Positions 1 through 9,000 of a stretch of 64,000 bases of DNA are shown here, piece by piece. The DNA is from an uncultured Bacilli bacterium (GTDB lineage Bacteria; Bacillota_I; Bacilli_A; RF39; UBA660). Where the stretch lies: NCBI GenBank assembly GCA_934096235.1, contig CAKOLO010000002.1, positions 195,439-259,438 on the forward strand. Direction: 5' to 3'. The stretch's first letter is position 1; every line of letters begins with the position of its first letter. Position numbers: made by a program.

Positions 1-3000
1 TTTTTAGCAGGATAAGGATGGCTGACAAACAACTTCCCAGTGGGGAGTTTAGCCCTATTTTAAAGGGATTGCGAAAGACTACTTTGTCATACATTAAAAT
101 AAATGTCATACTATTGGGTTAACTAAAAATAGCAAATTTTGTATCAAAAATAGCAGTTAGACACACAAATGGTTATACAAATGTCATACTTTTGGATTAA
201 CAAAATTGCTAATTATGAACCTCTTTTCACACATAAACCAACTTTTTTAGGTACCTTAATTATTTTTCTTTTTATAATTTCTTGGTACCGACTTTTTTGT
301 TTGTATAATTTTAGATAATAATTCCTCCTTACAAAAAAATACTATACTCATAAACTGAATATAGTATTTTAGCATCTAATAGTTCATCTCTTAGAACTAT
401 TGCTATATTATAATCATTATATCGTAAATAAATTAAAAGTCAATGTCAAAAAAGAGAACATTATTATGTAAATTAAAATGACAATATGAGAAAAATAAAA
501 TTTAAAATTTATATACTTTTTAAATGAAATAATTTTGATTTTATATTTCTTTTTAAATTATTCATATAAAAATCCATATATTCAAAATCTGGTTTACCAT
601 CTTCTCTAATAGGCAATTTTATTGAAAAGTCAGTTTTTATATGTCTATTTAATTCATCAATAAAAGCTTTATAATGAGTATTACCTTCCTTAAAAATAAT
701 AGAACATATAAATTCTTTGGTTTCGAGTGACATATCAACTTTTGGAATTAAAACAACCACATTTTGACTAGTATAAAATTCTTTTTTTTGAACAAAACAA
801 GAACCCAAATACGCTCCACCTAACGCAAGTGTTAAATTACCTGATTTAAATGGTTCATAATTTTCTACTCTATCAACTATTGCCGTTACACCATTATTTA
901 TTCCAGATCTTCCAACAAAATTTATAGTAGGATTATTATACTTCATTGCTACTTTATCCATTTTGCTTCCCGAGTCTATTTCAAACAAGTCATACAAATG
1001 AAAACTCTTCCATTTTTCTATATTGATTTTTTTATTATTACCATCTAAATTTCTCAAGTTACTAAATGTATTTTTCACTTTTTGACTAATGTTTTTCATA
1101 AAATTTTCCATATAGTTAAAATCTATATTATTTTCTTCATCAACTGGAAATTTTAATAATATTTCTTTTGCAGATTCCCGCGTAAATTTATTAACATAAT
1201 CATAATTTAAATTTTTTGCTTTTTCTCTAAAAACTGTTACTAAAAATAAATAAGCATATTTTGTCCATTTATCTTTTTCCAAAGGATACAATCCTTGAAC
1301 ATGTGGATATCCTACGAATGATTTTTCTTGATAAAATATAGAATCAGCTGAAGTTGTATCACTAAAAGTTACCATGTTCCCAGTTTCAGTACATTCTTGA
1401 TTTGTGTATCCACCAATACCATTATTGTAACTCGAATTAACAACAACAGGATTAATTCCATTCTGTTCAAGCAGAACATTGTTATTCATCTTGTATGACT
1501 TAGTAGGATGTATATCAAATAAATCACCAATTTTAAATTCTTTCCATTTTACAATATCCAGTTTATTCATCTTCGATATCACCTCTTAATGTAATAACAT
1601 AATTTTTTCCATCTTCAGCTACGCAACTTGCATACAGTACCTTTTCTATCAAATTATCTGAAAATTCTTTAACATCTATTCCTTCTTCATACATTAAGTA
1701 GTCCATCATTGTTTTTGTAAAATCTTCTTCATATATTTCAAATTCCTTTTCTGGTGTTTGATAACTCAAGTGTTCACTTGGTTTAATCCACTGAATTGTT
1801 GGATCACCATTTTGTTTATGAACAACATCAACAAATTTATCTTCAATTTCTTGCCATCTATCTTTGATATCATGTCTGCCTTGATTTTTTACAGTTTCCA
1901 AACCATCATTTTCAATATAACAAGCAAATATTTCTTTATCATTTTGTGGTATGCCGGCTTCAAATACAAATATAGATGTCGTTACGCCTTCTGAAAATAC
2001 TTTTTCTGGAAGTTTAATAATTTTTTGTAGTTGATGATGTTTTAAAATTGAAGCACTATTATCTTTTTCCAGTTTTTTATCTGGTAAAATAAATGCACAC
2101 ATGGTATGAGAAGGCACACTATCAAGAACATTTTCTACAATTTTAAGGCACCCATACTTTCTTTCAAACGGAGGATTCATTAACACTTTTGTTATTCCTT
2201 TACCTCTAATCCATTCTGAAGCTTTTGAGGTTCTACTATCAAGTTGTTCCAAATTCGTTTTTCCATCTTTATGTATTAGCATATTTGCACAAGCCAAAGC
2301 ATAAATTTCTCTATCAAATTCAATACCAAATAGTTGAGATGTTTTGATTTTTCTTGCCTTTTCTGTTTGAACACCCCCAGCTTCTTTTATCATTTTACTC
2401 ATAGATTTAACTAAAAATCCTCCGGATCCACATGCCGCGTCTAGAACTTTATCATCTTGATGAACATCTATTATTCTATACATAAAAGATGTGATATGCT
2501 CTGGCGTAAATACTTGCCCACTTTCAGATTTCTTCTTATACCTATTAAATTCATTAAAGAAAATACCCATAACATCTTCTCCGTTCCAATAGTCCGAATT
2601 AAGACATTTAGAAATTTCTGTTACCCATTCAATAAAATTGTCTATTGCTTCTTGATTATCGGAAGAGTTCATTCTGATTTCTGAATACACATCCAATAAT
2701 ATATCTAATTTTTGATTTTGTCTTCTACTATCCTCCAAAGATTTTGCTAATGTCGAATGAATTGATGTATGAAATGTTTGATAATTCATTCCTTTAATTA
2801 AACTTGCACCATATCGTTTTGCTACCAAAGCACAAGCAGTAAATATCATTCTATGATACAAATTTTTAATTCCAAACTCAGTATGCAAACAGTCATTTAT
2901 CTTTTTTGTTAATCCGTATATTTTTTGCTTATCTATTTTATTAATCAAAAACAAAGATAAATAATATTTTTTATTTTCCAATTTTTCGGGTACATCTATT

Positions 3001-6000: not shown

Positions 6001-9000
6001 ATACTTCGCAAAAAAATATGGTAGCATAATCCTTTCTGCCATCCCCTCCAAAAAAATTACTTTATCTGCAAAAAATAAATCACAAGTATTTAATATAAAA
6101 TATTTATCAATTATATTTTTTAAGCCTGAATACTCTTGTTGATTTATAAAACTTCTTAATGACTTAATTTTTAATCCATTTTTAGTATTTAAAAAATAAT
6201 TGATATCATTTATATCAGAAGATTGTAAAATGTATGCCGAATGTGTTGATATAATTGAATATATATTACTATCATTAAATATTTTATTAATTTTTGAAAG
6301 AAATACAGATTGCATTTGCGGATGCAAATGAGATTCTGGTTCTTCCAAAAAAACCATATTAAATACTGCTTTTTTTGTATTAATATCAAACTTAAATGCT
6401 TCAATTTGTATATAAATATATAATAAATTACTATAACCTAATCCATTTGATGACTCTGATAATGCTATATCATCAAAGAAATACTTAACTTTAGAATTTT
6501 TCTTTAATAAATTTTCAATATCGAAATCAGACACTATATTCAATTTTTTATCCTTATCATCATTAACTATTTCTTCGTTTAAAACTTTAATTAACTCTGA
6601 AAAATAATTAGCATAGGTATCGTCGAGTTTATCTTTAATATTTTCAATCGCTTCTCTAAATAAATCATCACTATTCAAATCTTCAGTATTTTTTTTCTTT
6701 TTTTCTTGATAAAATTTCCAAATAGCATTAGAAAGTGTCATTTTTTCATTATCAGAAATATCATCAACTTCTCTTTGTGCCGATATCACAAATAAGTTAA
6801 ATAAATTATATATATAATTTGTATCTACACTGTTAAGATATGTTGATTCTGGTTTAGAAGAAAAATACTTTTTACTATAGTAATTGTAAAATTCTCTTTC
6901 AAAAAAACTATAAAAATCAATTTTATCTTCTTCTCTTTTGAATTTTTCATTATAGGTTTCATAATCAATAAAAATCTTATTATTTTTATCTAAAGAAAAT
7001 TCACATTTTATAATTATAGTATTATTATTATCAAATTCATAAATTAAATCTTTTATCAATGCTAAGTTATCATTTTCGTCTATATCTATTGAGATATTCA
7101 TTTCTATTACTGGAAATTCTTTCACTATTTCTTCATTACCCGCTTTATAGTTATTATATAATTCATTTATTAAATTCCTTCTTATTTTTTTGTAATTAAA
7201 GTCGCTAAATTTAAATGTAGAAGTGTTTGTTAAAAATTTAGTCATTATTTCTACAATTGATGTTTTTGCAGTGTTGTTCTTTCCTACAATAATGGTTTGC
7301 TTATTAATACTTAATAAACATCTTTCTTCAGATTTTCTGTAATTTTTAAAATCGATACTATGTATTTTCATAAACTTCTCCTTACAACTAAAAAATAGTA
7401 TTTATCATAAAAGATTAAATACTACACATCTAATATTAATTATATCATATAATTCACTTTTTTGATAATTTAAACAGCATTTAATAACTAAAAATTGTTT
7501 TTTGTTCTTTTACAATGAAAACTTATCAAAAACTTTGACATTAAGCCAAAATCCTTATATTTTAAAGCAAACAAGACACTATTACACTTTGCCTACATTC
7601 TTACCTTTCGCACCTCCTGCATTCAAGTGATTTGAAACAACAACTACATCTTTACTATCGCCAAAGAAGCTTTGTACTTTATTTATTCTTTCTTTTGGAG
7701 TTAATGTTACATCACTATCTCTTGTTAATCTAACAGGTACGCCTAATTCTTTTAATCTATCATACATGTACTTACTAATACGAAGTGTAAAATCTTTTTC
7801 TTTAAGTCCATTAGAGACTGCTCCAGGATCGGTTCCTCCATGTCCTGGATCTATAACTATTCCTTTTAAAGCCATATAATCACCTAATTTATTGTATGAA
7901 AAAACATATATTTTGCTAATATATGTTTTAATAAATTCCTTTTTGTTCTAGTTTTTCTTTTAAATCTTTTGCTGCTAAGAATCTGGCACTTTTCTTATTC
8001 TTTTCTTCAGGTGTCAATTCTGCTAAAGTTCTTCCATCTAATAATTCAAATATTTCATCAAAACCAAAGCCATTGTCTCCTCGTCTTGTCTCTGTTATAT
8101 TTCCATCAAGTATACCCTCTCCAACTATTGTATCTTCACCATTATAATAAACTAGTTCACATACCACTTTGGCGCTTTTATCTTCACACTTCTTTACTTC
8201 ATTGATTATATATTCATTTCTTTCTTTATCAGTAGCATCTTCGCCTAAGAATCTATGTGTCATTACTCCTGGAAATCCATTTAACGCATTTACACATAAA
8301 CCTGAGTCATCCGCGATAACTGGCATGTTCGCTATATTATAAATTTCGTGTGCTTTCTTTTTAGCATTTCTTAAAAAAGTATCAGCATCTTCTTCAACTT
8401 CTTTATCTATCTTTTTATCCCTTAATGTATAAATTGTATCATCATTAAATATACTTTTTATTTCATTAATTTTAAATTTATTGTTTGTTGCGATTAAAAC
8501 TTCCATAAAATCACCTACTTTTCTAATATCCATTCTTGTAAATATTTTATTTCACTATTGCAAAATTCGCATCTACCTTTAGTAGCATCAATAGAAGCAC
8601 CACAATTATGACATTTAATATAATTAATACCTTTATTTAATTCTAAAGTACCATTTTCATTTTTTTTCATAGTGAATACTTCAGTCATATATTTTGAATT
8701 TAATTTTCCATTCTCTACGGTTATTACTCTTAAATATGCAGTTACATCTACATAACCAATATTATTCTTTTTATAATCTTTAAATTCATCATAGTCAATT
8801 ATATCAAAATCTATTATATTTTCTTTACTATAATAGTATTTTCTAACTTCATAGTTAAAATTATTAAAGAATGTTTTTTTGTCTAAGTTTGTTCTACTCC
8901 AAAATGCTTTTTGTTTTTCATTTTGTCTATCTTTATATCTTTTTATTGGACCTAATATAATATATCCATCAATTACATAAAAACCATAATAAAATATACA

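Follow-up and report, generated by a model that had tools for sequence, protein, structure and literature searches.

A compact serine-recombinase cassette with exchangeable defense-annotated cargo splits an Amidase_3 gene in uncultured gut Bacilli

The gin element of Bacillus cereus ATCC 10987, which intervenes in gerE, spans 28.6 kb, contains 31 genes and encodes three recombinases, and its sporulation-specific excision has been demonstrated (PMC5595907). The elements skin (in sigK), SPbeta (in spsM), vfbin (in spoVFB) and vrin (in spoVR) are prophages or prophage remnants of 20-135 kb in which the recombinase or directionality factor is under the control of sigma-E or sigma-K. Pipolins are bimodular elements that combine a constant mobility module with an exchangeable reservoir of defense genes; they use tyrosine recombinases, carry a primer-independent PolB and integrate in tRNA genes (PMC11551731). 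Here, we analyzed a stretch of 64,000 nucleotides (hereafter, the window) from an uncultured Bacilli bacterium placed by GTDB in the RF39/UBA660 lineage (assembly GCA_934096235.1, contig CAKOLO010000002.1, positions 195,439 to 259,438 of the forward strand), which begins with a group of defense-annotated genes next to a truncated amidase gene. We conclude, with a probability of roughly 0.9, that window positions 1-7612 are the left three-quarters of a 10.5-kb integrative cassette of the large serine recombinase (LSR) type that is inserted precisely in the amidase gene.

Overall, the cassette resembles gin in that it is not a prophage, splits a protein-coding gene whose frame is restored upon removal, relies on an LSR (GirC together with the small factor GirX in gin), carries a restriction-modification (RM) system and varies in content between strains. 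In contrast to gin, it measures 9.6-11.3 kb, encodes one recombinase and carries almost only defense genes; its target is an amidase gene rather than gerE, its hosts are uncultured gut Bacilli rather than Bacillus, and its excision during sporulation is a hypothesis of ours. The staphylococcal cassette chromosome (SCC) is similar in being a compact, recombinase-driven cassette with variable cargo, one fixed chromosomal site and tandem composite arrays. However, SCC elements target the 3′ end of rlmH without inactivating it, usually encode CcrAB pairs or CcrC, and carry mainly resistance genes. The sequence similarity to SCC is remote, with 96.6 bits against the NCBIfam CcrB model compared with a cut-off of 900. 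Shared with skin, SPbeta, vfbin and vrin are an LSR near one end, a mother-cell-type promoter (predicted in our case) and precise in-frame rejoining (PMC4191935, PMC5499854, PMC5025042). With pipolins, the cassette has in common the bimodular design of a constant mobility module and an exchangeable defense reservoir; it differs in using a serine recombinase and a protein-coding target gene (PMC11551731). It is therefore set apart from gin and skin, from SCC and from pipolins by the gene that it targets, the clade of its hosts, a very small size and an almost entirely defensive cargo. No amidase-targeting, LSR-borne defense cassette was described in the literature that we searched.

The boundaries of the element were resolved to the base. 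Every gene in the first 12 kb of the window lies on the minus strand, and on this strand the host sequence passes into the element at 7613/7612 (...AATGCAGGAGG / TGCGAAAGG...; in longer form, AATCACTTGAATGCAGGAGG / TGCGAAAGGTAAG), with 7612 as the first element base. When copies in differing flanks were aligned, near-identity (98%) began abruptly at TGCGAAWGGTAAGAATGTAGGC, and the amidase stubs on the other side were as diverged as the host flanks. The left end of the element, corresponding to the P′ arm of attP (7582..7612, minus strand; TGCGAAAGGTAAGAATGTAGGC...), is identical in all cargo variants and in 35 of the 35 metagenome contigs matched, where it abuts the amidase at the same codon each time; it is absent from IMG/VR. 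At its other end, the element stops at CTACATTCTACGACTTCGGGGG and is followed by (A/T/G)GG(C/G/T)GA(T/A)GG, reading G-D/E-G-A-E-V-I-Y, which is the Amidase_3 continuation.

A many-locus alignment revealed a GG core (7613..7614, minus strand) that is common to attL, attR, attB and the reconstructed attP, and these two are the only bases that attL, attR and attB share at the exchange point. The base that follows is always T at attL and is T, A or G at attR, where it varies at the synonymous third position of a glycine codon and therefore belongs to the host side. We infer that GG is the crossover dinucleotide, a core of the kind usual for large serine recombinases. The junctions read GCAGGAGG/TGCGAAAGG at attL, CTTCGGGGG/AGGGGATGG at attR, GCAGGAGG/AGGGGATGG at attB and CTTCGGGGG/TGCGAAAGG at attP, and joining the two element ends gives an attP of about 45 bp with an imperfect dyad (GCCTACATTCT...AGAATGTAGGC). 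Judged from these sequences, the locus has the att organization of an LSR element: the sites are short with a core of 2 nt, long direct repeats are absent, and the empty site is precise.

On the host side, the insertion leaves a stub open reading frame (ORF) of 97 aa (7582..7875, minus strand), which matches only positions 1-81 of the 174 positions of the Amidase_3 profile (Pfam). Its native 5′ part (7613..7875, minus strand) comprises codons 1-87 and the first two bases of codon 88; in protein terms, 88 native codons ending in SNHLNAGG are followed by nine element codons (AKGKNVGKV) and an element stop. The cut lies in the middle of the N-terminal catalytic domain. The native amidase sequence diverges across host lineages, whereas the element does not. 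The exact 97-aa ORF was found in four contigs of the public collection, and the island adjoins it in each of them.

The remainder of the element was recovered from a metagenome scaffold of 444 kb, which agrees with the window to 99.94% across 11.6 kb and runs on past window position 1. Beyond that point, it encodes in order a 61-aa ORF, a 527-aa LSR, a 240-aa ORF and the 3′ part of the amidase gene with LysM repeats; the 61-aa ORF overlaps the LSR gene by 8 nt at its end. The recombinase contains the Resolvase, Recombinase and Zn_ribbon_recom domains (Pfam) that characterize an LSR-element recombinase, its relatives in the PDB are TnpX and SPbeta SprA, and its NCBIfam similarity to CcrB and XisF is weak. 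In the canonical variant, the LSR stop codon lies about 40 nt from attR. The element measures 10,502 bp in the window's genome and 9,580-9,584 bp in its commonest form; one copy, to which an HTH_38 gene is added, reaches 11,316 bp. This gene (locus L005, 11519-12724) is on the opposite strand between the specificity subunit gene and the leader of a Gabija variant (element of 11.3 kb) and resembles an IS30-family transposase.

Deletion of the element in silico produced an in-frame 403-aa Amidase_3-LysM protein for the window's genome, and across eight loci, Amidase_3 and three to five LysM repeats became uninterrupted in seven (336-452 aa). The exception, L006 (GCA_021628585.1), stops early at 240 aa. 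In this assembly, each of four genes (gajA, gajB, the recombinase gene and a ClpB-like one) is broken into two ORFs, whereas the other copies are intact; the breaks probably reflect sequencing frameshifts rather than decay. Intact natural amidases of 403 aa form 51 clusters at 94-98% identity, and six more clusters at 95-96% identity have 395-422 aa. Empty sites in the same context, with nothing between the amidase halves, were found at four loci (L013, L015, L016 and L093). Their upstream neighbors are genes for a P-type ATPase, a leucine-rich repeat protein, a radical-SAM/SPASM protein, 129-aa and 337-aa ORFs and rdgB; downstream, on the opposite strand, lie three unannotated ORFs and a gene for a 142-aa CwlJ/SleB-family hydrolase. 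At one empty site, the upstream flank is 95.7% identical and attB reads AATCACTTGAATGCAGGAGGTGGGGACGGTGC. L016 (GCA_021730715.1), which was deposited as 'Holdemanella sp. SCCA2', encodes, in the same surroundings, an intact amidase that shares 98% identity with the protein reconstructed for the window.

The preliminary description of this locus had proposed a defense island inserted in an amidase gene, with the other junction to the left of the window, and both the scaffold and the empty sites bear this out. The leftward extension contains the missing amidase 3′ part and the LSR, related genomes have the intact 403-aa gene and an empty site between rdgB and the CwlJ-like gene, and the 97-aa form is neither the native length nor found anywhere except beside the island. 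Some details require revision. The stub at which the island was said to stop is real, but the true junction lies 30 nt inside that ORF rather than at its end, and the cut, which had been placed in the 3′ part of the amidase gene, falls at codon 88 of 403, in the 5′ quarter. The earlier remark that no integrase is visible holds for window 1-7600, which encodes no recombinase, but the module formed by the 61-aa ORF and the LSR starts only about 0.65 kb to the left of window position 1.

The element is one member of a family in which the carrier is fixed and the cargo exchangeable. In a scan of species representatives (one genome per species), the same LSR (96-98% aa identity) and the 61-aa ORF occurred in about two dozen loci, and the LSR module lies between the 5′ and 3′ amidase fragments wherever the contig reaches far enough. 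The host genomes were mostly deposited as 'uncultured Bacilli bacterium', with a few labeled 'Mycoplasma sp.', 'Clostridium sp.' (including CAG:914), Oribacterium sp. or Paludibacteraceae; given that relatives are labeled Holdemanella, Mycoplasma, Clostridium or Bacilli, the public names of the clade are therefore inconsistent. Constant parts of the element are about 100 nt after attL, a leader of about 640 nt, the 61-aa ORF, the LSR gene and a right arm of about 22 nt. When 55 attL junctions were clustered at 95% nucleotide identity, they fell into 31 amidase alleles, and the first 3 kb of cargo fell into 11 unrelated clusters.

The main cargo slot is located between attL and the leader. In addition to the Gabija, Phd-like and methylase/specificity genes of the window, it holds Gabija with a different Type IIG enzyme; PDC-S01 with a double methylase and PDC-S46; a C-protein with two 5-methylcytosine (m5C) methylases and McrB/McrC-like proteins, a LlaJI-like arrangement; two m5C methylases and a Type II endonuclease alongside a HATPase protein and its 443-aa partner; PDC-M48A/B with PDC-S07 and a 1,040-aa Type IV enzyme; or IetA/IetS. 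A smaller second slot between the recombinase stop and attR (L010 13508-14460, L026, L027, L023 and L028) contains a 240-aa ORF, an Mrr-like Type IV enzyme, an HEPN_LA2681 protein or a 157-aa ORF. One species representative, L027, has the same amidase as the window (halves 98.9% and 100% identical) but a different cargo, and cargo is therefore exchanged within a species. Some genes among the defense genes have no defense-family match, namely a 698-aa double-HATPase protein with its 443-aa partner, a 291-aa and 165-aa pair, and a 256-aa ORF (L027 1581-4932; L018 5590-6952; L024 5647-6417), and the 240-aa ORF in the second slot of the window's genome has no family match. We regard the unmatched cargo genes as candidates for new defense functions, with the two pairs and the 240-aa ORF as good ones.

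More distant recombinases use the same target. LSRs of 57-60% identity have different attP arms and an identical cut position, and these lineages carry a Type I RM system with PrrC, another Type I RM system or a SoFic-like gene. The PrrC-like anticodon nuclease gene lies inside the Type I RM operon (L034 3179-4303), in a lineage whose recombinase is 60% identical and which occupies this amidase site as well. L011 contains a tandem array: the left end of the element is joined there not to the amidase but to the right end of a second element, with a 551-aa recombinase, which suggests accretion at the same site. Tandem or neighboring serine-recombinase elements were seen in L011 (1-3635), L024, L045, L048 and L051/L052.

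Based on these data, we propose the following mechanism. The cassette is neither phage nor conjugative, and its mobility module consists of the leader, the 61-aa ORF and the LSR of about 525 aa. The LSR would join the attP of about 45 bp to attB in the Amidase_3 catalytic domain (...H-L-N-A-G-G/G-D-G-A-E...), exchanging strands at the GG dinucleotide without target duplication. The amidase gene is divided into a stub of 88 codons and a 3′ part that lacks a promoter, and precise excision would restore it. The recombinase presumably catalyzes the insertion, and the cargo is expected to protect the host against phage. The cassette also appears to spread horizontally, because the element is 98% identical across hosts whose amidases are only 50-70% identical.

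Several observations weigh against this account. An exact search of JGI metagenome contigs and IMG/VR for the excised circle, that is, the joined ends of attP, returned none. BLAST comparison of the recombinase module with phage and plasmid collections yielded only short matches in the catalytic domain (TndX and a Wolbachia WO resolvase), so that these collections offered no relative and no vehicle for transfer between species. The 61-aa ORF, a candidate directionality factor, has no Pfam, NCBIfam or PADLOC match. Moreover, all defense assignments are by profile similarity only, and the restriction activity of the methylase module is only predicted.

We considered what the insertion means for the amidase. 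In a plain safe harbor, to which we give about an even chance, the amidase gene would be dispensable and highly conserved, its catalytic motif would offer a reliable landing site across species, and lasting inactivation of this autolysin would be tolerated or even useful. Consistent with this, about 31 host alleles are interrupted without any gene piece that would compensate. Another Amidase_3 gene lies close by in one genome or more (L085), the insertion targets SNH(L/I)NAGG, a conserved motif that surrounds the His ligand, and a motif search revealed no sporulation-type control in the element. However, a safe harbor leaves unexplained why all lineages keep an exactly reversible in-frame insertion in a gene with a specialized, conserved promoter. 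Additionally, the intact form seems to be the more common one within the window's species (57 protein clusters compared with four contigs carrying the exact stub), which suggests some cost or turnover.

Alternatively, the cassette may be an element of the skin/gin type. Here the amidase would be a late mother-cell, sigma-K-dependent, CwlC-like gene, and the cassette would be silent during growth, a reading that we hold tentatively and at less than even odds. With the same reserve, the recombinase and a directionality factor might excise the cassette only in the mother cell, so that the amidase is restored there while the forespore keeps the cassette. The predicted amidase promoter (7890..7916, minus strand; GC-N16-CATACAATA) matches the pattern AC-N16/17-CATAnnnTA, which is the sigma-K promoter consensus of Bacillus (B. 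subtilis). CATAnnnTA is carried by 25 of 26 distinct orthologous upstream regions, mostly 23-27 nt before the ATG (range 23-41), and these regions are otherwise highly diverged. A C is invariant 16 nt upstream of it in all 20 aligned sequences, usually after an A, giving the pattern tAAC-N16-CATAnnnTA. In the window, CATAnnnTA has a background density of 7.7e-4 per nt, none of 50 other genes carries it at the corresponding position, and the sole intergenic occurrence of the full pattern is that of the amidase. The amidase has no signal peptide, and the same is true of CwlC, a sigma-K-dependent amidase.

Further support for the skin/gin-type reading comes from the insertion itself. The cut falls in the catalytic core and the element brings no replacement piece; therefore, the amidase is dead unless the element is excised. 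Excision restores the frame in silico in seven of eight loci, the exact target is kept by at least three recombinase lineages, and the 142-aa CwlJ/SleB-family hydrolase is encoded nearby. The known gene-intervening elements all use LSRs in mother-cell genes, and gin is a non-phage element with an RM system (PMC5595907, PMC4191935, PMC5025042). Among the hosts, Clostridium sp. CAG:914 has been assigned to RF39/UBA660 (PMC13508870); for the order RF39, a peptidoglycan wall and the ability to sporulate have been predicted (PMC10868615). The conserved sigma-K-like promoter and a host predicted to sporulate therefore make mother-cell excision plausible.

Several findings argue against the skin/gin-type reading. 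Neither AC-N16/17-CATAnnnTA nor CATACAnT was found in the leader, and a motif search across four element variants detected no sigma-K-like or sigma-E-like motif; instead of control by a sporulation sigma factor, the recombinase module has a sigma-70-type promoter followed by a terminator. The amidase promoter can also be read as sigma-70 type, with 9 of 12 matches (TTAGCA-17-TACAAT). No sporulation genes were found in the 64-kb window, NCBIfam gives the amidase neither a CwlD call nor any other sporulation equivalog call, and the JGI metagenome contigs and IMG/VR lack an excised form. Moreover, many LSR elements sit in conserved genes without developmental excision. Taken as a whole, the picture of RF39-type gut bacteria that park exchangeable defense cassettes in a sigma-K-dependent mother-cell lysis amidase and excise them only in the mother cell is in our judgment rather unlikely. 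Finally, it is very improbable that the stub is part of the island or that the truncation is a local deletion, a pseudogene or an assembly artifact: a first BLAST pass did carry a 98% match through part of the stub, but in the base-level alignment that led us to reject the stub as a part of the island, the stubs were diverged like the host flanks and identity started exactly at TGCGAA, the missing 3′ part after the recombinase restores the frame, empty sites exist, and the same junction recurs in more than 50 independent assemblies.

The cassette would show how a minimal module of one serine recombinase, a small ORF and a leader of about 640 nt moves whole defense systems between uncultured gut species, with the catalytic motif of a conserved gene as its landing site. 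The mapped attP/attB pair, together with related recombinases that share the target and differ in their attP arms, could serve work on recombinase specificity. If excision were tied to sporulation, defense islands would be linked to developmental genome rearrangement, and the locus would provide indirect evidence that RF39 sporulates. In the case of mother-cell excision, the cassettes would form the first family of gene-intervening elements devoted essentially to shuttling defense genes, and developmental DNA rearrangement would extend to a reduced, uncultured lineage related to Mycoplasmatales.

The cargo in the window contains a complete and canonical two-gene Gabija operon, as judged from its gene content. 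GajA (5356..7371, minus strand; 671 aa) combines an ATPase with an OLD-like TOPRIM nuclease (Pfam AAA_15 and OLD-like_TOPRIM) and matches the PADLOC GajA model over its full length (E=3.9e-140, residues 1-671). The adjacent GajB (3728..5371, minus strand; 547 aa) is a UvrD-like helicase (PADLOC GajB, E=9e-112; Pfam UvrD-helicase and AAA_19), and the two genes overlap by 16 nt. A promoter-like site upstream of gajA (7439..7468, minus strand; TTATCA-18-TG-TATAAT) was identified by consensus match only. The operon itself is ordinary; the novelty lies in its carrier. Next to it lies a small Phd/YefM-like ORF (3346..3564, minus strand) of 72 aa, or 69 aa as called elsewhere, for which the profile match is borderline (29.5 bits against a cut-off of 29.8 for Pfam PhdYeFM_antitox; 22.1 bits against 20.8 for NCBIfam phd_fam). 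It is preceded by a promoter-like site that matches the consensus (3618-3590, minus strand; TTTACA-17-TG-TATAAT). Pfam and PADLOC scans detected no toxin family beside it, the next gene downstream encodes a methylase, and its product may control the RM operon that follows.

The RM genes encode an N6-adenine DNA methyltransferase (1563..3335, minus strand; 590 aa; Pfam N6_Mtase) and a DNA specificity subunit with two target-recognition domains (509..1582, minus strand; 353-357 aa; Pfam Methylase_S). The element encodes no HsdR-like ORF and thus lacks the subunit set of a Type I (hsdRMS) system. The specificity subunit has its best PADLOC match with Type II specificity (1e-31, compared with 5e-7 for Type I), and the methylase scores alike against both candidate models (3e-36 for MTase_I; 3.4e-35 for REase_MTase_IIG, the latter over residues 134-495 only). 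Matches of the methylase to PDB sequences are confined to the HsdM core (residues 199-508). An additional N-terminal region of about 200 aa bears a PD...ILETK motif, seen by eye as PDGWY...AIILETK, and the enzyme is therefore a possible Type IIG/IIB-like restriction-methylase. Its counterpart in L029 is 29% identical, reads ...ILVETK and matches REase_MTase_IIG at 5e-58. The AlphaFold2 model of the methylase (pLDDT, the predicted local distance difference test score, 42.5), built on a shallow alignment of 14 sequences that are 85-100% identical, was too poor for a check of the nuclease fold. The pair is likely a putative BcgI-like (Type IIB/IIG) arrangement.

These results confirm the co-oriented Phd-like, gajB and gajA genes of the preliminary description on the minus strand, with the reservation that the Phd-like match is borderline. 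Of its hsdM/hsdS assignment, the presence of methylase and specificity genes stands, but there is no HsdR, and Type I is probably not the right class. The intrinsic terminator that had been placed at the 3′ end of the island does exist as a hairpin, but it is probably the leader hairpin inside the recombinase module and not the end of the island. The suggested comparison of GC skew revealed no contrast: GC content and GC skew are both indistinguishable from those of the flanks. Scans for tRNA genes and Rfam families found none anywhere in the window, including the junction and the leader.

The first part of the window (1-508) is a stretch of about 500 nt without a credible ORF. An alignment of 15 loci with different cargos identified it as the conserved non-coding leader of the orf61-recombinase module (1..508, minus strand), of which the window contains about 500 of some 640 nt before its edge cuts it. 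At the start of this conserved module, there is a near-consensus sigma-70-type promoter (416..443, minus strand; TTGACT-16-TATAAT, 11 of 12 positions). About 15 nt downstream of the promoter are two hairpins, the second with a U7 run in the manner of an intrinsic terminator (333..405, minus strand; minimum free energy -25.6 kcal/mol, z=-4.64); the terminator-like hairpin and U-run themselves occupy 370-333, 45 nt after the promoter. The GC-richer part of the leader has no significant fold (z=+0.45). Three direct GTATGACA repeats follow (190-183, 112-105 and 93-86, minus strand). Promoter, hairpins and repeats are kept in every cargo variant, and none of these leader features has an Rfam match. 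As predicted from the sequence, the hairpin unit could be a short RNA of about 75 nt or an attenuator before the recombinase operon (window 333-443; L010 11128-11238), and the repeats could be regulator binding sites, perhaps for the product of the 61-aa ORF. Upstream of orf61 (L010 11640-11670), a strong ribosome-binding site, AAGGAGG, is followed by an ATG-TAA start-stop mini-ORF that is conserved in all variants.

On the other side of the amidase stub, the chromosomal flank begins with a gene for an rdgB/Ham1-family nucleoside triphosphate pyrophosphatase (7928..8533, minus strand; Pfam Ham1p_like, 6e-55). Upstream of rdgB, window 8515-11733 (minus strand) contains a three-gene cluster that is conserved in the empty-site genomes. 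It encodes a 603-aa radical-SAM/SPASM protein, a 129-aa protein that ends with a Gly/Ser stretch and 17 Asn residues, and a 337-aa protein in which two CxxC pairs resemble zinc ribbons and membrane segments are predicted. The cluster may serve peptide modification.

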